A stretch of 64,000 nucleotides of DNA from Candidatus Omnitrophota bacterium (GCA_028712375.1 JAQTQG010000005.1:7393-71392), one strand, 5' to 3'. Positions 1,839 through 63,931 are shown, counted from the stretch's first letter. The notes: generated by a model from the letters alone, not told the origin. Translations and numbers: made by a program.

Positions 1839-3938
1839 ATGGGATTTGATTTGTTGTTATTGGCGCCGGTAGGTTCAATTTTAGCTTTAGGTTTTGCATT
1901 TTATCTGGCTTTGAGTGTTTTGAGGATGGATGAGGGTACGGATAAGATGAAAGAGATTGCCAGCGCTGTGCGCATAGGCGCCCAGGCTTATTTAAAAAGG
2001 CAGTATCTGGGTGTTTCTATGTTTTTTGTGGTGGTATTTTTTATTCTTCTGGCGATGGCTTTGAAGAATTATCTGGTAATATTTGTGCCGTTTGCTTTTT
2101 TAAGCGGCGGTATCTTTTCCGGGTTATCCGGTTTTATCGGTATGACCATTGCTACACAAGCTTCTAATCGTACTGCGCAAGCCGCATCCAAGAGTTTAAA
2201 TTCGGGATTGCGGGCGGCTTTTTCCAGCGGCGCGGTAATGGGCCTTACGGTTGTAGGGTTAGGTTTATTAGATTTGAGTATTTGGTATTATTTCCTGGAT
2301 TGGTATTATTCCTGCCATCCGATCCCGTTAGGCACAGACAAAATCGCGGCAATTACTTCTACTATGCTTTGTTTCGGTATGGGTGCCAGCTCAATGGCGC
2401 TTTTTGCCAGGGTAGGCGGAGGCATCTTTACTAAAGCTGCAGATGTCGGCGCAGACTTAGTAGGTAAAGTAGAAGCAGGCATTCCGGAAGATGATGCGCG
2501 TAACCCGGCAGTTATCGCGGATAATGTCGGTGATAATGTCGGTGATGTCGCCGGTATGGGTGCCGATCTTTACGAATCTTATGTTGGTTCAATTGTGGCT
2601 ACTTCGGCTTTAGGTGTGGCTGCCGGTTTAGGGATTGCCGGAGTTACCGTTCCGATGGTTATGGCGGCAGTAGGCGTAGTTGCTTCTATTATTGGTACTT
2701 TCTTTGTAAAAAGCGGTGAGCAAGCAAGCCAAAAAGTATTGCTGGCAGCTTTGAGAAAAGGAGTGTTTACTAGTTCTTTATTAGTGGCGGTAATTTCCTA
2801 TTTTCTTATCAGGCATACTCTGGGAGTTGAAAATCTTGGTGTTTATTGGTCGGTGTTGGCGGGTTTAGTCGCGGGGGTGTTAATTGGTTTAGTTACTGAA
2901 TATTATACTTCCAGCGGTTTTAAGCCTACCCGTACAATTGCCGAAGCTTCTTTGACCGGGCCGGCCACTGTGATTATCGGCGGCATTGCGGTGGGGATGA
3001 TGTCTACCGCCATTCCGGTGATTATTGTGTGCGTGGCTATTTTAGCAAGTTTTTATTTGTCCGGTGGCGCGGCAAATTTTAATTCCGGGCTTTATGGAAT
3101 TGCAATTTCCGCGGTTGGCATGCTTTCTACCTTAGGCATCACTTTGGCAACCGATGCTTATGGCCCGGTAGCGGATAATGCCGGCGGTAACGCTGAGATG
3201 TCCAAATTACCTCCTGAAGTAAGGAAGCGTACTGATGCTTTGGATTCTTTAGGAAATACAACCGCGGCAACCGGTAAAGGGTTTGCGATTGGTTCAGCCG
3301 CTTTAACGGCGCTAGCCTTGATTGCGGCGTATAAAGACCAGGTTATGCTCTTCGGGAAAGACATAAATGCTAATATGATGAATCCAACAGTATTAGTGGG
3401 TTTGTTTTTAGGCGGGATGATGCCATTTTTATTTTGCTCTATGACGATGCGCGCGGTAGGAAGAGCTGCCGGTAAAATTGTAGTAGAAGTGCGCAGGCAG
3501 TTTAAGGAAATTGTTGGTATTATGGAAGGCAAGGCTAAGCCTGATTATGCGCGTTGTGTGACTATTGCTACTGCCGCTGCGCAGAAAGAAATGATTGCGC
3601 CTTCCCTTTTAGCGATTACTGCTCCTATAGCAGTGGGTTTATTAATCGGGATTGATGCGGTTGCCGGGTTATTGGTGGGCGCAACGGTAACCGGTTTTGT
3701 TTTAGCGGTAATGATGGCTAACTCCGGTGGTGCCTGGGATAACGCTAAAAAATATGTCGAAGAAGGTAACCATGGCGGTAAAGGGTCAGCCGCGCATAAG
3801 GCTACAGTAGTTGGCGATACAGTTGGCGATCCGTTTAAGGATACTTCCGGGCCCAGTTTAAACATATTAATTAAGCTGATGTCTATGGTTTCGATTGTTT
3901 TTGCTTCATTTATTATTAAAAATACATTGCTTAAGTAA
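1839..3938 (+). CDS. hppA: membrane-bound proton/sodium-translocating pyrophosphatase
   Basis: 699 aa polytopic; [19 protein letters not shown] and [21 protein letters not shown] signature motifs of V-type H+-PPases. Confidence 0.9.
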
Positions 3939-3956
3939 TTAAAGTTACTCAATAAA

Positions 3957-4009
3957 GGGGATCGTTTCTATTTTGCTTTAAAAAAATAGAAACGGTCCCC
4001 TTATTTTTT
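3957..4009 (+). terminator. rho-independent terminator after hppA
   Basis: 18-bp stem GGGGATCGTTTCTATTTT / AAAATAGAAACGGTCCCC with one mismatch, followed by TTATTTTTT. Confidence 0.65.
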
Positions 4010-4089: not shown

Positions 4090-4689
4090 ATGAATGATTT
4101 GGAGCTTCTCCAAAGCTGCCTAAAGGGCCAGAAACAGGCTTGGGCTGAATTCCTCTTGCGTTATTCCCGCCTAATCTATAATTATATTCACAGTGTTTTA
4201 TCGATTAAGGGGCGCGCTGCTTCTGCGGAGCAGGTTGATGATATCTTTCAGGAAATATTCCACTCTTTAATTAAAGATAATTGTAAAAAACTAGCTTCTT
4301 ACCGTGGCAAAAACGGCTGTTCTTTGGCCAGTTGGCTAAGGCAGGTGACTATTAATTTTACGATTGACTATTTACGTAAACTTAAGCCAATCTCATCTAT
4401 TGATGTTCAGGATGAGGATGGATTTAGCCTGAGCGATTCATTGGCGGATCTTTCTCCTGGAGCGGTTGAATTTTTAAATGACCAGGACAAGCGTAAAACT
4501 TTAACTGAATGTATCGGATTGCTGGAATCAGAAGAACAGTATTTTCTGGAATTGTTATTAAATCAAGGGCTAACCTTAGATGAGATTAAGGATTCTTTTA
4601 AGATTAACCGGGGAGCGGTAGATATGCGTAAAAGCCGGATCTTAGAAAAGCTGCAGGATTGTTTTAAGAAAAAAGGATTTTTAGGTTAG
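4090..4689 (+). CDS. ECF-type RNA polymerase sigma factor (sigma-70 family, regions 2 and 4 only)
   Basis: 199 aa; region-2-like block DDIFQEIFHSLIK...SWLRQVTINFTIDYLRK and C-terminal HTH LTLDEIKDSFKINRGAVDMRKSRILEKL. Confidence 0.75.
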   Translation: MNDLELLQSCLKGQKQAWAEFLLRYSRLIYNYIHSVLSIKGRAASAEQVDDIFQEIFHSLIKDNCKKLASYRGKNGCSLASWLRQVTINFTIDYLRKLKPISSIDVQDEDGFSLSDSLADLSPGAVEFLNDQDKRKTLTECIGLLESEEQYFLELLLNQGLTLDEIKDSFKINRGAVDMRKSRILEKLQDCFKKKGFLG

Positions 4690-26240: not shown

Positions 26241-26591
26241 ATGTTAAGAACTATGTTGAAATCTAAAATTCACCGGGCCATAGTAACCGATGCCAATCTT
26301 TATTATGAAGGCAGCATTACTATTGATATGGATTTAATAAAAGCGGCTGATATTTTGGAACATGAGAAAGTGGAAGTGCTTAATCTTAACAATGGTTTGC
26401 GGATTGAGACTTATGTGATTAAGGGTAAGGCTGGAAGCGGTGTAATTTGTTTAAATGGCCCGGCGGCCCGGGGTGCTTGTCCCGGTGACCAGGTAATTAT
26501 TCTTTCTTATGTGGCTGTTGAAGACAAAGAAGCCAGATCGATAAAAGCTAAAATTATAAAAGTCGACGCCAAGAATAGAATTGTAAGGTAA
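26241..26591 (+). CDS. panD: aspartate 1-decarboxylase (pyruvoyl-dependent)
   Basis: [29 protein letters not shown], with the Gly-Ser self-cleavage site. Confidence 0.9.
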
Positions 26592-26627
26592 AGTCGACGC
26601 TAAGAACAAAGACAGGGATTAAGCTTG

Positions 26628-27146
26628 ATGAATGGAATAAAATCAAAAATTAAGATATTTGGTGAGCCTGTTTTAAGAAAAAAAGCTAAGCCGGTTAACC
26701 AGATTACTGATGAGCACCGCCGGATTCTCAGCCAGATGGCTAAAGCGATGTATGATGATTCAGGGATTGGCCTGGCTGCTCCGCAAATCGGGTTAAGCGA
26801 ACAGTTAATTGTCGTGGACATCGGGGAGGGGCTTTATAAATTAGTTAATCCTAAAATTATCAAGAGCCAGGGTAAGCAGTCGATCAGCGAAGGGTGTTTG
26901 AGCGTTCCCGGGGTTTGCGTTAAGGTTAAACGCGCTAAACAAGTCTGGGTGCAGGCTCAAGATGAGAACAGCCGTTTTATAGAAATTGAAGCCAAAGATC
27001 TTTTTGCTTGTGTTTTACAGCATGAAATTGATCATTTGAAGGGTAAACTTATTATAGATTACGCTTCACTTTTAGAAAAATTACGCATTAAAAAAAGATT
27101 AGCTGACCTTAAAACAAAAGTAAAAGTTGTTAAGCTGCAGCTTTAA
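26628..27146 (+). CDS. def: peptide deformylase
   Basis: GIGLAAPQIG, EGCLSVPG and QHEIDHLKG metal-binding motifs. Confidence 0.9.
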   Translation: MNGIKSKIKIFGEPVLRKKAKPVNQITDEHRRILSQMAKAMYDDSGIGLAAPQIGLSEQLIVVDIGEGLYKLVNPKIIKSQGKQSISEGCLSVPGVCVKVKRAKQVWVQAQDENSRFIEIEAKDLFACVLQHEIDHLKGKLIIDYASLLEKLRIKKRLADLKTKVKVVKLQL

Positions 27147-33122: not shown

Positions 33123-33165
33123 AAACCCCCCGCCATTAATAATGACGGGGGGTTTATTTTTTTTG
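33123..33165 (+). terminator. rho-independent terminator
   Basis: AAACCCCCC-[15 nt loop]-GGGGGGTTT followed by ATTTTTTTTTG. Confidence 0.8.
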
Positions 33166-33247
33166 TTACTCAAGCTTAATAGGGCCCGGATCTGATAAGA
33201 ATTAATCGAAGCAGTATCGTAACGGTTTGCTTAAAAATATATAAATA

Positions 33248-34690
33248 ATGCGGATATTATTTATTACTAAGGAATGGTTATTTCACGAGCGCATGGGGAT
33301 CATGTCCTTAAGTTCTTCTCTAAAACAACAAGGGCATTCTGTGCGTTTAGCAATCGTGGATAAAATAGGGATACCCGGCATGATGCAGTTGGTGGAAGAG
33401 TTTGGCCCGCACCTAATCGGTTATTCAGCGATGACCGGAGAATACCCTGCTCTGCTTAATTTCAACAAAAAGCTTAAAGAATATTTTGAATTTATTTCAG
33501 TTTTTGGCGGCCCGCACGCCACATTCTTCCCGGATATAATTTATGATAGTGGGGTGGATGCGGTTTGCGTGGGCGAAGGAGATATTGCTTTGCCGGATTT
33601 TTGTAAAAAAGTCGATGAATCCGCCGATTTCTGGAAGGCGCCTAATTTCCGGGTTAAGTATAAACAGGAAGTGTTTAAGAATGATTTATTGCCTCTGGTT
33701 GAAGATTTAGATACGCTGCCTTTTCCTGACCGGAGTATTATGTATGCAGCAGACCGGGATCTTTTAGGCGAAGGCCGGAAAATGTTCCTTAGCGGCCGGG
33801 GATGCCCGTATCATTGTTCCTATTGTTTTAATGAAAAATATAATGAAATTTACAGAGGTAAAGGCAACTGGGTGCGCTATCGTTCACCGCGGAATATTGT
33901 TCATGAGATTACGGATTTTTGTAAAACCTACCCTGTGGATTATGTTTGGATTGCTGATGACAACTTTTTAGTGAAGCCGCAAAGATGGTTTGAAGATTTT
34001 TCCGTTCTTTATAAGGCAGAAGTGGGCCTGCCTTTTTCGGTAAACGTAAGGGCCAATAACGTGAGTGATTATGTTATGGGGCAGCTTAAAGAAGCGGGCT
34101 TAGATAGTGTTTGGATGGGGGTGGAGTGCGGTAATCAGGAGCTGGCAAATACGATATTAAAACGCAACCTTGCCAATCAACAAATTTTAGCGGCAGCAAA
34201 GATTTTCCATAAGTATGGTATAAAATTTATGACTGAGAATATTTTTGGTTTGCCGGTAGCTGATCCGTATTCAGTTGATTTGCAGACTCTGGATTTTAAT
34301 CTTAAGCTCAAGCCCACATTAGCTATTGCGTCTTTATTGTACCCTTTTCCCGGTACGCCGGTACGTAAGTATGCTATAGCTAATGGTTTCCTAAGAGAGG
34401 AAGCAGGGTTTTTGCAAACAAGTAAATGTTCCACAATGTTGGAGTTTCCCGTAAAACTAAAACGCAGGATTGAAAATCTGCAAAAACTGTTTCCGATAAT
34501 TGTGCGATTTCCAGCTTTAAGGCGTTTTACGGATATTTTGACTTTGTTGCCGTTAAGGCCGGTTTATCTGCTTCTATTTTATTTTTGGTATGGTTATATT
34601 CAGAAATTTAAAATATTCGCTTTTCGCTCGCTCCGAAAAGAGTTGGGGGCATATGTGCGGTTCTGGTGGAGTTTTTTGAGAAAGACTTAG
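33248..34690 (+). CDS. B12-binding domain radical SAM protein
   Basis: N-terminal Rossmann-like B12-binding region (LIGYSAMTGEY...GGPHATF), radical SAM CxxxCxxC = CPYHCSYC, 480 aa. Confidence 0.7.
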   Translation: MRILFITKEWLFHERMGIMSLSSSLKQQGHSVRLAIVDKIGIPGMMQLVEEFGPHLIGYSAMTGEYPALLNFNKKLKEYFEFISVFGGPHATFFPDIIYDSGVDAVCVGEGDIALPDFCKKVDESADFWKAPNFRVKYKQEVFKNDLLPLVEDLDTLPFPDRSIMYAADRDLLGEGRKMFLSGRGCPYHCSYCFNEKYNEIYRGKGNWVRYRSPRNIVHEITDFCKTYPVDYVWIADDNFLVKPQRWFEDFSVLYKAEVGLPFSVNVRANNVSDYVMGQLKEAGLDSVWMGVECGNQELANTILKRNLANQQILAAAKIFHKYGIKFMTENIFGLPVADPYSVDLQTLDFNLKLKPTLAIASLLYPFPGTPVRKYAIANGFLREEAGFLQTSKCSTMLEFPVKLKRRIENLQKLFPIIVRFPALRRFTDILTLLPLRPVYLLLFYFWYGYIQKFKIFAFRSLRKELGAYVRFWWSFLRKT

Positions 34691-34743
34691 GATGATGAAA
34701 CGGGGACGTTCCCCAAAGGGACACCCTAACAGCAGAAAGTTAA

Positions 34744-34863
34744 GACCGTTTCTTCCTAACTGATTAGGGCGCAATGAGTTTATCTAGAAGTGTCCCCATG
34801 GGGACACTTCTGGCAGAAGCTATTGAAAATAAAAGAGATATTTAGAAACGCTCTAGGAATTTC
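34744..34863 (+). repeat. copy A of a ~120-bp direct repeat with internal palindrome GAAGTGTCCCCATGGGGACACTTC
   Basis: About 90% identical to 36644..36764; contains a 24-nt perfect palindrome (34787-34810) and an overlapping palindrome CTTCTGgCAGAAG. Confidence 0.85.
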
Positions 34864-34920
34864 GTAATATAGAGCTATAAATCTGATAAGTAAGGATAAT
34901 TTGAAAAATGGGAGGTTATA

Positions 34921-35682
34921 ATGAAACAGTGGTATGAGTCGTTATTTGAGAATTATGCGCGTAAATACGATCAAGAGTGTTATGTCCGGGGAACAAGCGG
35001 GGAATGTGATTCCATCGAGCGGGAGATAAACCACGATAAGGCAATAAAAATTCTGGATATCGGTTGCGGTACCGGCCGGCATGCGATTGAATTGGCCAAA
35101 AGAGGGTATCAGGTCACGGGAATCGATCTATCCGAGTCACAGCTTAAGAGGGCTAAAGAAAAAGCAAAAGAGCAAGGGGTCAAGATTGACTTTCAGAGGC
35201 TTGATGCAAGAAACCTCCCTTTTAACGGTGATTTCGATCTGACAATCATGCTCTGCGAAGGCGGGTTTTCTTTGATGGAAACGGACCAAATGAATTTTGA
35301 AATACTTAAGAATGCAACTAAGTCGTTAAAAAATAACGGGAAGTTTATATTTACTGCATTGAACGGATTGTTTCCGCTGCTTCATTCGGTAAAGGATTTT
35401 TATGGCTCGGCAGCTAAAGAAGGGGGCTCGGTCTGTAAAAGTATATCTTTCGATTTGATGACCTTTCGTGATCATAATCGTGTTGAATTTGAAGATGATG
35501 CGGGAAATAAAAAAGTATTGGAATGCAATGAGCGGTGTTATGTCCCCAGCGAGATTACCTGGCTACTGCAATCGCTTGGATATAAGAAAATAGGGATTTT
35601 TGGGGCTAAGCTGGGGGCATACTCAAGAAACGACAAACTAACTACGGAAGATTTTGAGATGCTGGTTATCGCTGAAAAATAG
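34921..35682 (+). CDS. class I SAM-dependent methyltransferase
   Basis: ILDIGCGTGRHAIELAKRGYQVTGIDLS motif I and acidic motif II; SD GGGAGG. Confidence 0.75.
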   Translation: MKQWYESLFENYARKYDQECYVRGTSGECDSIEREINHDKAIKILDIGCGTGRHAIELAKRGYQVTGIDLSESQLKRAKEKAKEQGVKIDFQRLDARNLPFNGDFDLTIMLCEGGFSLMETDQMNFEILKNATKSLKNNGKFIFTALNGLFPLLHSVKDFYGSAAKEGGSVCKSISFDLMTFRDHNRVEFEDDAGNKKVLECNERCYVPSEITWLLQSLGYKKIGIFGAKLGAYSRNDKLTTEDFEMLVIAEK

Positions 35683-35743
35683 CGATTTATAGGACTGCGG
35701 AAATATGGTCATTAAATTTTTAATAAAGGAGTTAATACCTATG

Positions 35744-36622
35744 GTTAAATTAGCGCGTTATATTCTTACGGTTTTTGTTATTATTTTTTGCGCATGCGGT
35801 TGCAATCCTCCTGTACGTACGTTGCCGTTTGCCAATACTCTTTCAGCGGACAACGTGCCGATTGCCTATGCGGTGTACGGGCGGGAAAATGACCCGACCG
35901 TAGTGTTTGTCCATGGGTGGAGCTGCGATAGCCGCTATTGGCACAACCAAATTCCGTATTTTTCGAAAAAATTTCGTGTGATTACTATCGATTTGGCCGG
36001 GCACGGTAATTCCGGTTTTGGCAGAAAGGTTTATACCACGGAAGCCTTTGGCCAAGATGTCGCAGCGGTATTGCGGAAGCTGGATGTGAAAAAAGCGATC
36101 CTGGTTGGGCATTCCATGGGAGGAGAGATCGTTATATATGCGGCTAAGCTTGCGCCGGAAAGAGTGATTGGCCTAGTGGGAGTAGATACTCTTGAAGATC
36201 TGGGGATGGTTTATCCGGATGAGGTAAAAAACAGTATCTATGAACCGATCGCCGCAGATTTCGTGCCGAAGGTACAAGAGTTTGTCCGCAGTATGTTCCC
36301 GGCCAATGCCGATAAAGCCCTGGTCGAGGCGGTCGCCCGGGATATGTCATCGGCTCCGCAGGAGGTGGCGTTGGGTTCGATGCAGGAATATTTTAAGGTG
36401 TCTGATCCGGAACTGATCAAAGGCCTTGCCGTGCCGTTAAAAAGTGTTAATGCCGATCTCTGGCCGACTAATGTTGAAGGGAATAAAAAACTGGTGCCGT
36501 CATATGAGATGGTATTAATGAAAGGCCGTGGACATTTCATTATGTTGGAAGCGCCGGATGAATTTAATGCCCTGCTTGAGCAGATGATTAATCATATTTT
36601 GGTTGAGACAAAAGGAAAGTAG
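35744..36622 (+). CDS. alpha/beta-hydrolase fold lipoprotein
   Basis: Lipobox FCACGC after a signal peptide; HGW oxyanion region VVFVHGWSCD; nucleophile elbow GHSMGG; C-terminal GHF His. Confidence 0.7.
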   Translation, partial: VKLARYILTVFVIIFCACGCNPPVRTLPFANTLSADNVPIAYAVYGRENDPTVVFVHGWSCDSRYWHNQIPYFSKKFRVITIDLAGHGNSGFGRKVYTTEAFGQDVAAVLRKLDVKKAILVGHSMGGEIVIYAAKLAPERVIGLVGVDTLEDLGMVYPDEVKNSIYEPIAADFVPKVQEFVRSMFPANADKALVEAVARDMSSAPQEVALGSMQEYFKVSDPELIKGLAVPLKSVNADLWPTNVEGNKKLVPSYEMVLMKGRGHFIMLEAPDEFNALLEQMINHILVETKGK

Positions 36623-36643
36623 GATATTATAAGAAAGAATGGG

Positions 36644-36764
36644 GACCGTTTCTTCCTAACTGGTTATGGTGCAATGAGTTTATCCAGAAGTGTCCCTATG
36701 AGGATACTTCTGGCAGAAGTTATTGAAAATAAAAGAGATATTTAGAAACGGTCTAGGAATTTTA
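36644..36764 (+). repeat. copy B of the ~120-bp direct repeat (hairpin kept, with a compensatory change and a bulge)
   Basis: Aligns with 34744..34863 at about 90% identity; lies in the 5' leader of miaB. Confidence 0.85.
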
Positions 36765-36809
36765 GGGGCCGATGAACGTAAGTAGAGATACGAAAAGTTA
36801 TATAACTAT

Positions 36810-37958
36810 ATGAGTGATAAAGAGAAGAAACAAAATAAGGTTTTTCTGAGGACTTTCGGCTGTCAAATGAATGTGAGGGATTCAGAGCTCATTTGTGGTT
36901 TATTACAGAAAGCCGGCTATCGAATCAGCGCTACTGAACAGGATGCTGATATAATTATTTTTAATACCTGTTCTGTGCGTAAGCACGCTGAAGACCGGGT
37001 TTGGAGCTTGATTGGCAGCTATAAAGGTTCTAAAATTATCGGGTTGATGGGGTGCATGGCCAAGAATTACCAAGAGAAAGCTTTTGAGCGTGACCCGAGT
37101 ATTAGTTTTGTGGTGGGCCCGCAGGATATCCATAAGCTCCCGGATATTTTAAAAAAACTTAGTGTTAAAAGTTTGTTGGAGCGTAAAATCTGGGAAACCG
37201 ATAGTGTTGAACGGCCGGAAGAAATTTATCATACTGATTTTTATCAGGATGCTAAACATGCTTATGTGGTTATCTCCGAAGGATGCTGTAATTTCTGTTC
37301 TTACTGCGTTGTGCCTTATGTGCGGGGCGCTTTACGCCACCGTAAGCATAAGGATATAATGGCTGAAATTCATCAAGCAATTGACAAGGGAATAACGAAA
37401 GTGACTTTGCTGGGGCAGAATGTTAATGCTTATCAGGATGGCCAGATTAATTTTACTAAGATTCTTGAACAGGTCAATGCTTTAGATGGATTAACGGAGT
37501 TTGATTTTTTCACCTCTCACCCTAAAGATGCTAATCTGGAATTTTTCAAAGCGCTGCATGGCCTGGAAAAGTCGGCTAAGCGCCTGCATCTGCCTTTGCA
37601 GTCAGGTGCAGACCGGATTTTAACTTTAATGAACCGCGGCTATAAGATAAAAGATTACTTGGCTTTAACTGATTCTTATCGTAAGATTGTTAAAGGCGGT
37701 TTGTTAACTACGGATATTATCGTGGGGTTTCCTGGTGAAACCAGGGAAGAATTTCAGGAAACCTGCGCAGTTGTAGAAAAAATCGGGTTTAATGCCGCCT
37801 ATATTTTTAAGTATTCATCCCGGCCGGGTACGGAAGCGGCTAAAATGGCCGGCCAGCTTGAGCAGGATGAAATCAATAAGCGGCATAAAAAGATCCTGGA
37901 TTTACAAAGAGCAATCTCTAAAAAGTTAAGGAGTAGGCATAGCGATGCAAAAAATTAA
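36810..37958 (+). CDS. miaB: MiaB-family radical SAM methylthiotransferase (tRNA ms2i6A37 synthase-like), apparently lacking a C-terminal TRAM domain
   Basis: TFGCQMN MTTase N-domain, radical SAM CCNFCSYC, 382 aa versus about 440 for the full length; followed by miaA. Confidence 0.75.
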   Translation: MSDKEKKQNKVFLRTFGCQMNVRDSELICGLLQKAGYRISATEQDADIIIFNTCSVRKHAEDRVWSLIGSYKGSKIIGLMGCMAKNYQEKAFERDPSISFVVGPQDIHKLPDILKKLSVKSLLERKIWETDSVERPEEIYHTDFYQDAKHAYVVISEGCCNFCSYCVVPYVRGALRHRKHKDIMAEIHQAIDKGITKVTLLGQNVNAYQDGQINFTKILEQVNALDGLTEFDFFTSHPKDANLEFFKALHGLEKSAKRLHLPLQSGADRILTLMNRGYKIKDYLALTDSYRKIVKGGLLTTDIIVGFPGETREEFQETCAVVEKIGFNAAYIFKYSSRPGTEAAKMAGQLEQDEINKRHKKILDLQRAISKKLRSRHSDAKN

Positions 37959-60691: not shown

Positions 60692-61273
60692 ATGGGGATA
60701 GATTTAATTTCGCGCTTAAACTACTTGGATTATATTATTTTAATTGTTTTTTTTAGAATATGTTATATTGCTGCTAAAACAGGCCTATCCGTGGAAATAT
60801 TCAAGTTTTTAGGCATGATATTTTCTACCTATATCTCTTTGCATTATTATACGGTTTTATCCGACCTTATTCAAAGGCGTTTTTTGCCTAAGGCGATGCC
60901 TTTGGCATTTGTGGATTTTATTGTTTTTTTACTATTAGTGATATTTGGGTATTTATGTTTTGTGTTATTGCGCAGCATTCTTTCCCGGTTTGTGCAATTA
61001 AATACTGTTCCGAAAATTAATCAATTGTCCGGATTAATTTTGGGTTTTGGCCGGGCTTTTTTAGCGGTGGGTTTATTATCTTTTGCTTTAAGTATTTCCA
61101 GTGTTGATTATCTTACCCGTTCAGTTGGCCATTCCTATTTAGGTAGCCGGGTTTTTAGTATTTCACCACAAACATATTCCTGGATTTGGAACAATGTTTT
61201 TTCAAAATTTTCCTCGCATGAAAAATTTAATTCTACGGTTACTGAGGCTACGGATAAGATAGCTCCTAGATGA
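60692..61273 (+). CDS. cvpA: CvpA family membrane protein
   Basis: 193 aa, four TM helices, N-terminus ...LDYIILIVF... Confidence 0.55.
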   Translation: MGIDLISRLNYLDYIILIVFFRICYIAAKTGLSVEIFKFLGMIFSTYISLHYYTVLSDLIQRRFLPKAMPLAFVDFIVFLLLVIFGYLCFVLLRSILSRFVQLNTVPKINQLSGLILGFGRAFLAVGLLSFALSISSVDYLTRSVGHSYLGSRVFSISPQTYSWIWNNVFSKFSSHEKFNSTVTEATDKIAPR

Positions 61274-62154
61274 AACTAGTTGAATTTTACAATTTGGCAG
61301 TGCATTTCGGGCGCCTGGCTGACCCGCGCAAAAATAAGCGTATGATAAAATCATTTCCGGATTCTGCTATTCTTTTCGGCCGCCCGGATTTAGAAATAAA
61401 AAAGATTATGGTGGGTATTGATATTGAAGTTGCGGAATTATTACTGGCCGACCGTATTCGTCAGAAACAAGGTTTGGATTTGGTGTTTGCGCATCATCCC
61501 GAAGGTAAGGCTTACGCGAATTTGCATGAAGTAATGCGGTTGCAGGTAGATTTGTTGATTCAGGCTGGCGTGGCTCAAAAAACAGCCTTCCGGTTAATGG
61601 AGGAAAGGATTTCCGAGGTTCAGCGCAGGATATTACCCCAGAATCATACCCGGCCGGTAGATGCAGCCAGGCTGTTAAATATGCCTTTTATGAATATGCA
61701 CACCCCGGCAGACAATCATGTTTATCGGTATCTGGAGGGTATTTTTAGACAAAAAACTAAACAACCGCGCCTGCTTGAGGACGTGGTTAAGGTATTAAAT
61801 ACTATACCGGAATATCAGCTTGCTCAAAAATTTAACACCGGGCCCCGTATAATTTTAGGTAATCCAAAACGGCCGGCCGGCAAGATCTTATTTGATATGA
61901 CCGGAGGCACCGAAGGGTCAAAAGATGTTTTTGATAAATTGTATAAAGCGGGGATAAGGACTTTAGTGGCGATGCATTTAGGAGATGAGCATTTTAAAAA
62001 GGTTAAAGATGCAAATTTAAATGTGGTGATCGCCGGGCACATTTCATCGGATACTTTAGGATTAAATCTGCTTTTAGATAATATTGAGCGCCACGCAAAA
62101 CAGGATTTTCAGATGATTGCTTGTTCCGGTTTTACCAGGATTAAGAGGAAGTAA
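61270..62154 (+). CDS. Nif3-like dinuclear metal-centre protein (YqfO/YbgI family)
   Basis: DLVFAHHPEG His-His motif, C-terminal AGHISSD; Nif3 homologs lie next to dnaG-sigA in Firmicutes. Confidence 0.45.
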   Translation: MKLVEFYNLAVHFGRLADPRKNKRMIKSFPDSAILFGRPDLEIKKIMVGIDIEVAELLLADRIRQKQGLDLVFAHHPEGKAYANLHEVMRLQVDLLIQAGVAQKTAFRLMEERISEVQRRILPQNHTRPVDAARLLNMPFMNMHTPADNHVYRYLEGIFRQKTKQPRLLEDVVKVLNTIPEYQLAQKFNTGPRIILGNPKRPAGKILFDMTGGTEGSKDVFDKLYKAGIRTLVAMHLGDEHFKKVKDANLNVVIAGHISSDTLGLNLLLDNIERHAKQDFQMIACSGFTRIKRK

Positions 62155-62158
62155 AAAA

Positions 62159-63931
62159 ATGGCTGGCAGGATTCCCGAAAACGTTTTAGAAGATATTTTA
62201 GGCCGGACAGATATAGTGGAAATTATTTCAAGCTATATTCCGCTTAAGAAGGCCGGGTCTAATTTTAAAGCGAATTGTCCGTTCCACCATGAAAAAACCG
62301 CTTCTTTTATGGTTTCTCCGGAGCGCCAGATTTATCATTGTTTCGGTTGTGGTGAATCCGGGAATGCTTTTAAGTTTCTTATGCGCCATGAACGGATGGA
62401 ATTTCCCGAGGCAGTTGAAACTCTGGCTAAAAAGGCCGGGGTGATTCTACCGGATCAGGACAACCCTGTGTTGGCCAAGGCGGCAAGTTTAAGCACCCAG
62501 TTATATAAAATTAATGAGCTGGCCGCAGGTTTTTATAAAAATAACCTGCATGCTGCTAGTGCGGCGGCCGCAGTTAAATATCTTTCTGACAGGGGGATTA
62601 AGCCTGCAATAATAAAAGAGTTTCATTTGGGGCTGGCCACTTCCGGCTGGGATGGATTAATTAATTTTTTAAGATCAAAAAATATCAGCTTGGCGCTTAT
62701 GGAGCAGGCAGGTTTGATTCTGCCTAAGGATTCCGGCGGTTATTATGATCGTTTTCGTAACCGGATTATTTTCCCTATTTTAGATATGCGCAGCCGTGTG
62801 ATCGGGTTTGGCGCCAGAGTTCTGGACAGTAGTTTGCCGAAGTATATTAATTCTCCGGAAACACCGATCTATACAAAAGGCAGAAATCTTTTTGGGTTTA
62901 ATTTATCTAAAGATTTTATCAGGGATGCTGATTGTGCGGTAATCGTGGAAGGGTATCTGGATTTTATGATTCCTTATCAGGAAGGGATAAAAAATCTTGT
63001 TGCTTCACAAGGAACAGCGCTTACTCTTGAACAGATTAAACTGCTTAAACGTTATACTTATAATATAGTAATGGTTTATGATGGGGATACCGCAGGAGAG
63101 ATTGCTACCCTAAGAAGCCTGGATATCCTTATTGATGAAGGTATAAACGTAAAGGTGGTCCCTTTGCCCAAAGGTATGGACCCGGACACCTTGGTGCGTA
63201 ACCATGGTGTTGATAAGTTAAAAGTTAAGATTGAAAATGCGGTAAGCTTTTTTGACTATAAACTTAATGTTTTAAAAATCCGCCATGATATAAAAGATGC
63301 GCATGGTAAAGCTAAGATTGCTTCTGAAATGCTCTTAACGATCAATAAATTCGATAACGCTATTCTCAGGGGAGAGTATACTAAGAAGTTGTCTGAAGAA
63401 ATGGCTGTTCCACAGCAGCATATTCTTGAAGAATTGCATAAGCTAAAACCGAAATCTGCCGTTGCTGTGCCTGTGCCGCAGCCGGCTGTTTTAGCCGTAA
63501 GGCAGCCCGAAATCAATCCGGCGGAAAAGCTGTTAATTAAGTTTATGCTTGAGGAAGCGGAGTTGATTGAAAAAGTTATGCAGCAGTTGTCGCCTGCTGA
63601 TTTTTCTGATCCGCGTACTGCCAGGATTGTTTCTGTAATGCAGGATCTGGTGCTTCAGGGAAAAAATATCGAACCTAGCGTCCTGATGAATTATTTTAGT
63701 GAAGATGATGCCAGTCAACTGGTTTGCGAAACTATGTTTATGCCACCGCTGGCGGACCAGGAAAGAGAAAAGGCGATTAATGATTGTATTACGCGGATCA
63801 AGGTTCAGCGGTTAAAGAGCCGCCGTGAACATTTGCACATTCAAATTAAAAGTGCCCAATCCACCGGTGACGAAGATAAATTAAACAGTCTTATTCAAGA
63901 ATTTCATAATCTCATAAAGAAAGGCGACTAG
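62159..63931 (+). CDS. dnaG: DNA primase
   Basis: Zinc-ribbon CPFHHEKTASFMVSPERQIYHCFGCGESGN, TOPRIM (VIVEGYLD ... YDGDTAG), C-terminal DnaB-interaction region. Confidence 0.9.
   Translation: MAGRIPENVLEDILGRTDIVEIISSYIPLKKAGSNFKANCPFHHEKTASFMVSPERQIYHCFGCGESGNAFKFLMRHERMEFPEAVETLAKKAGVILPDQDNPVLAKAASLSTQLYKINELAAGFYKNNLHAASAAAAVKYLSDRGIKPAIIKEFHLGLATSGWDGLINFLRSKNISLALMEQAGLILPKDSGGYYDRFRNRIIFPILDMRSRVIGFGARVLDSSLPKYINSPETPIYTKGRNLFGFNLSKDFIRDADCAVIVEGYLDFMIPYQEGIKNLVASQGTALTLEQIKLLKRYTYNIVMVYDGDTAGEIATLRSLDILIDEGINVKVVPLPKGMDPDTLVRNHGVDKLKVKIENAVSFFDYKLNVLKIRHDIKDAHGKAKIASEMLLTINKFDNAILRGEYTKKLSEEMAVPQQHILEELHKLKPKSAVAVPVPQPAVLAVRQPEINPAEKLLIKFMLEEAELIEKVMQQLSPADFSDPRTARIVSVMQDLVLQGKNIEPSVLMNYFSEDDASQLVCETMFMPPLADQEREKAINDCITRIKVQRLKSRREHLHIQIKSAQSTGDEDKLNSLIQEFHNLIKKGD

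Follow-up and report, generated by a model that had tools for sequence, protein, structure and literature searches.

Two 119-nt repeats, copies A and B, lie on either side of a methyltransferase-hydrolase gene pair upstream of miaB in DNA from a Candidatus Omnitrophota bacterium (GCA_028712375.1, JAQTQG010000005.1:7393-71392); the whole stretch of 64,000 nucleotides analyzed here is referred to as the window, and positions are counted from its first letter. Our tentative reading, to which we assign a probability of roughly 0.42, is that A and B would be discrete, non-coding, lineage-restricted imperfect-palindrome repeats of ~110-119 nt, of the kind represented by doublets of repetitive extragenic palindromes (REPs) such as REPINs or bacterial interspersed mosaic elements (BIMEs), by miniature inverted-repeat transposable elements (MITEs), or by enterobacterial repetitive intergenic consensus (ERIC) sequences. 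We favor this reading because the repeats have sharp ends, a modular tie to a dispersed hairpin and a restriction to one lineage, and because they have no coding capacity beyond an unconvincing 23-codon open reading frame (ORF) and belong to no Rfam family. A REP- or MITE-like element had been among the explanations offered by an earlier reading made from this DNA alone (the sequence-only reading), and it is the one that fits best, the unit being discrete, with the palindrome's base as its left end and an outer stem that recurs 31 kb away. The features that carry the argument are as follows.

34744-34862, + strand: copy A of the 119-nt palindromic repeat, present also in contig L047
36644-36762, + strand: copy B of the 119-nt palindromic repeat
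34786-34811, no strand assigned: AGAAGTGTCCCCATGGGGACACTTCT, a perfect palindrome of 26 nt that forms the apical hairpin of copy A
3955-4002, + strand: intrinsic terminator, a 20-bp stem followed by a T run, 3′ of an H+-pyrophosphatase gene

The repeat is real and statistically solid. Copies A and B are identical at 110 of 119 positions (92.4%), align without gaps in direct orientation, and match each other with a BLAST E value of 4e-46 within the window, in agreement with the direct repeats of about 120 bp and about 90% identity originally described. The nine differences fall at element positions 20, 24, 27, 42, 54, 58, 62, 77 and 108 and comprise A/G, G/T, C/T (four times), T/C, G/A and C/G changes, seven of them transitions. 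Outside the 119 nt the flanks are dissimilar (copy A: ...AAAGTTAA / CGTAATAT...; copy B: ...GAATGGG / TAGGGGCC...), and local alignment of the flanks against shuffled sequence gave p values of 0.68 downstream and 0.25 upstream, which excludes the idea that the repeat continues into its surroundings with insertions and deletions. The junction at copy A is not an assembly artefact of the metagenome-assembled genome (MAG), since an independent 1.9-kb Logan contig of the same strain, L047 (SRR22315508), is 100% identical to 33123-35071 and spans this copy.

In each copy the whole ~110-nt unit forms a single long imperfect hairpin, a feature that had escaped the first description, as had the recurrence of its closing stem in the terminator at 3955-4002. 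The closing stem pairs GACCGTTTCT with AGAAACG(G/C)TC at element positions 1-10 and 101-110, and an internal loop of 18 x 18 nt separates it from a 54-nt inner palindrome. On the + strand, the RNA of copy A folds with -38.2 kcal/mol (z -3.7) and that of copy B with -44.3 kcal/mol (z -5.8), 5-12 kcal/mol more stably than the - strand, owing to a handful of G·U pairs. The apical palindrome of copy A had been reported as perfect and 24 nt long; it is indeed perfect, and its length is 26 nt. Its counterpart in copy B (36684-36713) retains 12 pairs, one of them G·U. The sequence CTTCTGGCAGAAG is located at 34807-34819. A second palindrome, CTTCTGgCAGAAG (6+1+6), had been proposed to form a mutually exclusive hairpin; it would have a loop of 1 nt, and it is absent from every minimum free energy (MFE) and centroid fold.

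The outer stem links the pair to a shorter relative, ~31 kb away. The arms of the terminator at 3955-4002, GGGGATCGTTTCT and AGAAACGGTCCCC, have the sequence of the A/B closing stem; the terminator takes the form AAGGGGATCGTTTCTATTTT...AAAAATAGAAACGGTCCCCTT followed by ATTTTTT and folds with -30.7 kcal/mol (z -9.4). A covariance model built from A and B found its best non-self match in the window at 3960-4006 (E 0.04). The 13-mer GGGGACCGTTTCT, allowing at most one mismatch, has three matches in the window against 0.05 expected, a count that none of 100 shuffles reached; the terminator accounts for two of the sites, one in each arm, and copy B for the third, in its left arm. Likewise, the closing-stem 10-mer has nine matches in the window against 2.4 expected, six of which are the three inverted pairs; no enrichment of the closing-stem motif was seen in the related loci L002-L012. 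The outer stem is thus a repeated hairpin module in this genome, and A and B represent this module with ~90 additional palindromic nucleotides in its loop.

The copies seem to be confined to this lineage. No further full copy was found in the window, either by BLAST or with the covariance model of A and B run with filters off. Across ~440 kb of related loci, which include the upstream regions of the orthologous miaB, methyltransferase and hydrolase genes, neither BLAST nor the covariance model found a homologue of the 119-mer; a check for homologous copies had been proposed with the initial description, and it turned up none. Exact-pattern scans gave a single chance match, in Agrobacterium, for an element 19-mer in genome contigs and no match for an element 23-mer in metagenome contigs. 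Five element patterns had one match in viral contigs, by chance and inside a groEL-like gene, and blastn of the element against plasmids returned one chance match of 27 nt. The source genome was represented by the 64-kb window and L047, the remaining MAG being absent from the contig collections scanned, and the nearest other genomes are ~80% identical in MiaB. A literature search on Omnitrophica repeats turned up nothing pertinent. The comparison of the element with Rfam 15, also proposed at the outset, returned nothing at the gathering threshold over the whole window and nothing relevant at E values up to 10 between 34600 and 36900.

The genes around the two copies are all encoded on the + strand.

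33248-34690, + strand: B12-binding radical SAM protein gene, 5′ of copy A
34921-35682, + strand: class I SAM-dependent methyltransferase, first gene between the repeats
35741-36622, + strand: alpha/beta hydrolase gene, the second of the two between the repeats, whose product has a lipoprotein-like signal at its N terminus
36810-37958, + strand: miaB, with an intact 5′ end (36813-36862) that serves as an integration target in relatives and is found disrupted or duplicated there

The order is NYN-domain gene, mechanosensitive-channel-like gene (followed by a terminator), radical SAM gene, copy A, methyltransferase, hydrolase, copy B and miaB, and 3′ of miaB lie genes for a SPOR/TPR protein, miaA and hflX, so that the placement of the methyltransferase and hydrolase between the repeats, with miaB next, stands as first described. 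Copy A begins 53 nt past the radical SAM stop codon and ends 58 nt ahead of the methyltransferase ATG, while copy B begins 21 nt past the hydrolase stop codon and ends 47 nt ahead of the miaB ATG; both are on the coding strand, 1.9 kb apart. MiaB is 100% identical to the Candidatus Omnitrophota MAG protein MDD5129920.1, and the hydrolase corresponds to MDD5129919.1.

This placement raises the question of a shared cis-regulatory element, which could be a 5′ leader RNA, an attenuator using the 23-codon ORF, or an operator for a dimeric regulator. Read on the coding strand, each copy is followed by a start codon 47-58 nt further on, the + strand fold is the better one by 5-12 kcal/mol, a sigma-70-like site (36603-36630) lies directly upstream of copy B, and the 23-codon ORF is intact in both copies. 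A different repeat in L028, described below, offers a loose analogy, in that a promoter-leader-terminator unit of 147 nt precedes both a hydrolase-methyltransferase pair and the next gene. The substitutions between the copies nevertheless speak against a regulatory role. RNAalifold on A and B gave 33 common pairs, none of which is altered on both sides; the absence of compensatory pairs is a weak test, being based on two sequences. It does not bear out the compensatory C-G to T-A change that had been assigned to copy B, whose central stem instead carries C>T at 54 (giving U·G), G>A at 58 (a C·A mismatch) and C>T at 62 (giving G·U). Overall, the six stem substitutions produce G·U in one copy at positions 42, 54 and 62 and a mismatch in one copy at positions 58, 77 and 108, the pattern expected of a palindrome that decays neutrally. 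With three wobble and three disruptive changes, there is therefore no evidence for the selection on RNA structure that the sequence-only reading had seen in these differences.

Other properties expected of a regulatory leader were also lacking. The closing stem is followed by UAGGAAUUUU in copy B and UAGGAAUUUC in copy A, with no U-tract; a terminator scan found no intrinsic terminator at either copy, and the two have in common neither a U-tract nor a platform that would sequester the ribosome-binding site. There was no Rfam match even at an E value of 10, and in the related loci compared, the stretches preceding the orthologous miaB, methyltransferase and hydrolase genes show no conservation of the element. 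The 23-codon ORF (34774-34845 and 36674-36745, encoding MSLSRSVPMGTLLAEAIENKRDI and MSLSRSVPMRILLAEVIENKRDI) has a weak ribosome-binding site, and its copies differ by two synonymous and three non-synonymous changes; its peptide has no homologue among the related loci compared, and these two observations together disfavor a leader peptide. The shared cis-regulatory RNA put forward earlier is thus left without support, and a cis-regulatory role of any of these forms is, in our judgment, distinctly unlikely.

Among known systems, REPINs and BIMEs are REP doublets that form hairpins and are mobilised by REP-associated tyrosine transposases (RAYTs) (Bertels & Rainey 2011, PMC3116915), and REP units carry a GTAG or CGTC tag (PMC3733652). 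Copies A and B resemble them in being ~100 nt long, non-coding and intergenic, in forming a long imperfect hairpin from two inverted units, and in being built on a short hairpin-forming repeat that is also arranged otherwise, namely in the terminator at 3955-4002. Moreover, RAYT-like genes with flanking REPs are present in related Omnitrophota, and these Y1 transposases with inverted REP-like repeats indicate that such mobile machinery exists in the phylum. Between the apical GTGTCCCC/GGGGACAC and the REPs around the RAYT genes of L011 and L018, the likeness is confined to an 8-mer, which we note as a lead and do not use as evidence. In these relatives the Y1_Tnp (RAYT/IS200-like) gene has 34-nt inverted repeats (...AATTCCGGGGACACGATACTTAATTATT; L011:2536-3298 and L018:11890-12652) and adjoins the hydrolase-methyltransferase pair; a similar REP-like sequence lies upstream of the hydrolase in L023.

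With regard to MITEs, the inverted repeat GACCGTTTCT / AGAAACGGTC at element positions 1-10 and 101-110 is perfect in copy B and matches at 9 of 10 positions in copy A, and it is followed 3′ by nine more shared nucleotides, so that it is not strictly terminal. ERIC sequences (also called IRUs) of enterobacteria and the Correia elements of Neisseria are imperfect palindromes of 100-155 bp found in transcribed intergenic regions. A and B share their size, their architecture and their place inside co-directional gene clusters; they differ in belonging to another phylum and in showing no TA target duplication of the Correia type, and they are set beside these families by description. A diversity-generating retroelement (DGR), with its template and variable repeats (TR and VR), was considered and rejected, as the differences are not confined to adenines and both copies are intergenic; no reverse transcriptase was found among the ORFs scanned.

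Several observations weigh against assigning A and B to this kind of element. Neither copy contains GTAG or CGTC on either strand. A tblastn search of the whole window, made with a Y1 transposase and two serine recombinases, detected no RAYT, Y1 transposase or serine recombinase, and no integrase, transposase or reverse transcriptase was found among the window ORFs scanned with Pfam, which were most of them, excluding 26241-27146 and 60692-63931. These ORFs and the synteny with L002 and L048 revealed housekeeping genes only. Within the 64-kb window, only two full copies and a single short relative can be seen, and the lack of a 119-mer homologue in the related loci gives no sign of a wider family. 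No target-site duplication was seen around A or B by eye, no dedicated search having been made. Finally, two co-oriented copies 1.9 kb apart, exactly at the boundaries of a two-gene cassette, would be somewhat unlikely to arise by random insertion (a few percent, by rough estimate); their spacing, orientation and cassette-boundary position therefore fit a recombination-site or regulatory role.

If A and B are palindromic repeat elements, the unit would be a repeated terminator-like hairpin, GGGGAYCGTTTCT...AGAAACGGTC, whose loop in A and B carries an additional palindromic module of ~90 nt. Copies of the composite unit would have been placed in two spacers between genes of the variable region ahead of miaB, either by a trans-acting enzyme encoded elsewhere or by hairpin-directed recombination. 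The element would be co-transcribed with the + strand genes and fold as a long intercistronic stem-loop, which could serve as a signal for mRNA stability or processing or for leaky termination; stable intercistronic stem-loops commonly affect mRNA decay or read-through. As DNA, the 119 bp of homology could let the methyltransferase-hydrolase pair be lost or regained.

The idea that A and B are boundary sites at which a recombinase encoded elsewhere excises and reinserts the gene pair as a circle, in the manner of integron attC or staphylococcal cassette chromosome (SCC) repeats, draws on much of the same evidence. The copies are in direct orientation at the exact ends of the gene pair and at synteny breakpoints relative to L048, and they are palindromic, as attC sites are. 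The latter, including the Vibrio repeats known as VCRs, are ~120-bp palindromic repeats with ~90% identity that lie between cassettes; A and B agree with them in size, identity level, palindromic structure, direct orientation and position at cassette boundaries. However, a regular-expression search of both strands of the copies and 14-23 nt of flank found neither of the attC cores RYYYAAC (R″) and GTTRRRY (R′), the nearest core-like sequence being TCCTAAC without its partner GTTAGGA. In addition, there are only two sites, the ORFs scanned contain no integrase or other recombinase (ORFs near 26-27 kb and 60-64 kb lying outside the Pfam scan), and an ordinary terminator that is not linked to any cassette has the same outer stem.

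The arrangement of the same genes in relatives, where they lie in arrays bounded by direct repeats of 33-147 nt, is also relevant to this proposal. Across many Omnitrophota, among them Ca. Velamenicoccus archaeovorus with its complete genome, the hydrolase keeps 80-88% identity, and in many divergent relatives it is found upstream of miaB-SPOR-miaA-hflX. It directly adjoins the miaB cluster in L022, L025 and L032 and lies 1.5-9 kb from it in L016, L017, L026, L027, L031, L034 and L042. The hydrolase and methyltransferase are adjacent and co-oriented in both possible orders, one in L011, L018, L028 and L032 and the other in the window, L013, L024 and L038, while in L021, L025, L036 and L012 they are 2-7 kb apart. 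The two orders, with the same relative orientation, would be expected from cyclic permutation of a circular two-gene cassette, or from independent single-gene cassettes.

By these comparisons, the hydrolase upstream of miaB, with or without the methyltransferase, represents a widespread synteny rather than a recent foreign insertion. The sequence-only reading had listed insertion of the pair as a cassette among its options; the pair is instead ancestral beside miaB, and the flanks of A and B are dissimilar. The orthologous spacers of the relatives carry no 119-mer. Between the hydrolase and miaB, the window has a spacer of 187 nt, compared with ~120 nt in L019 and L023 and ~20 nt in L048 and L041, and conservation of this spacer is confined to the last ~20 nt before the ATG. 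In the closest syntenic relative, GCA_026387265.1 (L048 and L009), the order is channel, radical SAM gene, three genes, methyltransferase, three genes, hydrolase, integrated elements, serine recombinase and miaB. The window (synteny with L002 and L048 covers ~27-48 kb) is a compact version of this layout, with A and B at two of the synteny breakpoints. As separate observations, the hydrolase is among the most conserved genes of the region, at 80-88% amino acid identity compared with ~80% or less for MiaB among Omnitrophota, and its gene (35800-36600) has ~50% G+C against ~40% around it.

The integrated elements of L048 and L009 belong to a broader pattern at the 5′ end of miaB, which was seen in L003, L009, L012, L013, L015-L017, L019, L021, L023, L026, L027, L029, L031, L034, L035, L041 and L048. 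On the downstream side of the hydrolase, and in many cases on its upstream side as well, these relatives have short stub ORFs that copy the start of miaB (ATG...KVFIRTFG), are broken after TTCGG and continue with nTGRCCGnTGG. Fifteen loci together contain 19 such stub junctions, every one in the orientation of miaB. In L003 and L009, miaB has a large serine recombinase gene directly beside it, and in L015 another such gene lies ahead of a junction and the hydrolase. The cassettes are bounded by direct repeats of 33-147 nt that are copies of sequence upstream of miaB, with examples in L013, L015, L016, L028, L012, L018 and L048. These arrays are products of serial integration at the miaB 5′ end by large serine recombinases. 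Our literature search found no description of miaB as a serine-recombinase target, and the window contains no tRNA or transfer-messenger RNA (tmRNA) as a possible attachment (att) target. The complete genome of L012 (Ca. Velamenicoccus archaeovorus, CP019384) has a direct repeat of 73 nt without mismatches (1209-1281 / 4238-4310), which consists of the methyltransferase 3′ end and the start of a miaB stub and brackets a 3-kb segment of four genes.

In staphylococci, large serine recombinases (ccr) build SCC cassettes into tandem arrays at rlmH. The arrays of the relatives, though not A and B, resemble them in that cassettes pile up at the miaB 5′ end beside a large serine recombinase, with repeats that regenerate the target. 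In contrast, A and B have no target stub or junction, and the target is present in the window in intact form only: when searched with a profile of the 19 junctions (nhmmer --max), the window gave one match, the intact miaB 5′ end at 36813-36862 (E 9e-7). This result, with which pattern searches agree, rules out A and B as diverged miaB stub or junction repeats, and the mismatch to the serine-recombinase junction profile also counts against a role as recombination sites. The earlier suggestion of att-like repeats left by cassette insertion holds to the extent that this locus, in relatives, is full of cassettes bounded by direct repeats, and fails for A and B themselves, which lack the junction signature. 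Taken together, we regard a function of A and B as cassette-boundary recombination sites as unlikely.

The same locus offers a more passive origin, in which an element integrating at miaB brought with it a copy of the hairpin-bearing region upstream of miaB and the repeat is a by-product. Most direct repeats at this locus in relatives arise in this way, from a miaB stub, the 3′ end of the upstream gene or a promoter module, and copy B is immediately followed by the conserved sequence that precedes miaB. Beside copy A, however, a pattern search found no miaB stub and there is no junction; the repeat reaches neither into the end of the upstream gene nor toward the start codon, and the model does not predict a left boundary at the base of the palindrome. 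Such an origin is therefore, in our view, quite improbable. More speculative still, and in our estimate very improbable, is the proposal that A and B are sites of an undescribed, palindrome-based cassette system upstream of miaB that would operate in parallel with the serine-recombinase arrays and make the gene pair excisable and circularly permutable.

As palindromic repeat elements, A and B would add an example of a long-known kind from the little-studied Omnitrophota, and one built on a terminator hairpin. The setting outweighs the element, since the region upstream of miaB is a hotspot that collects cassettes, including the methyltransferase and hydrolase, between direct repeats and beside large serine recombinases; the miaB-targeted cassette array in related genomes is the more remarkable biology. 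If A and B took part in this cassette traffic, they would point to a second, palindrome-based way of moving cassettes, and if they did not, they are still useful in practice as a marker of how the gene pair can be lost by deletion over the 119 bp of homology.

Other repeats were observed at the related loci. In L028, a different 147-nt direct repeat (166-312 and 2138-2283; 89% identical) flanks the hydrolase-methyltransferase pair, and each copy has a TTGACA-18-TATAAG promoter, a ~60-nt leader and an intrinsic terminator, AAAGCAAUCC...GGGUUGCUUUUU. This repeat looks like a duplicated attenuator or riboswitch-like leader, judging from its layout, and a search of five related loci, the L028 repeat included, gave no Rfam match. 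In L042, the relative with the most similar hydrolase (91%), degenerate tandem repeats of ~130 nt that are 70-74% identical lie just upstream of miaB (2823-3213).

A further motif lies 17 nt upstream of copy A, outside the repeat.

34702-34726, + strand: 25-nt motif GGGGACGTTCCCCAAAGGGACACCC, a small hairpin plus GGGACAC

This motif recurs at L048:13599-13623, L048:14472-14495, L017:9472-9490 (- strand) and L041:11106-11121 (- strand), in genomes whose core proteins are only ~80% identical. The L048 copies are followed by TGTATAAT promoter-like sequences, and in L048 a gene of 243 amino acids is flanked on both sides by a repeat of 77 nt that starts at the motif; candidate roles for the motif are a conserved operator and a REP-like site.

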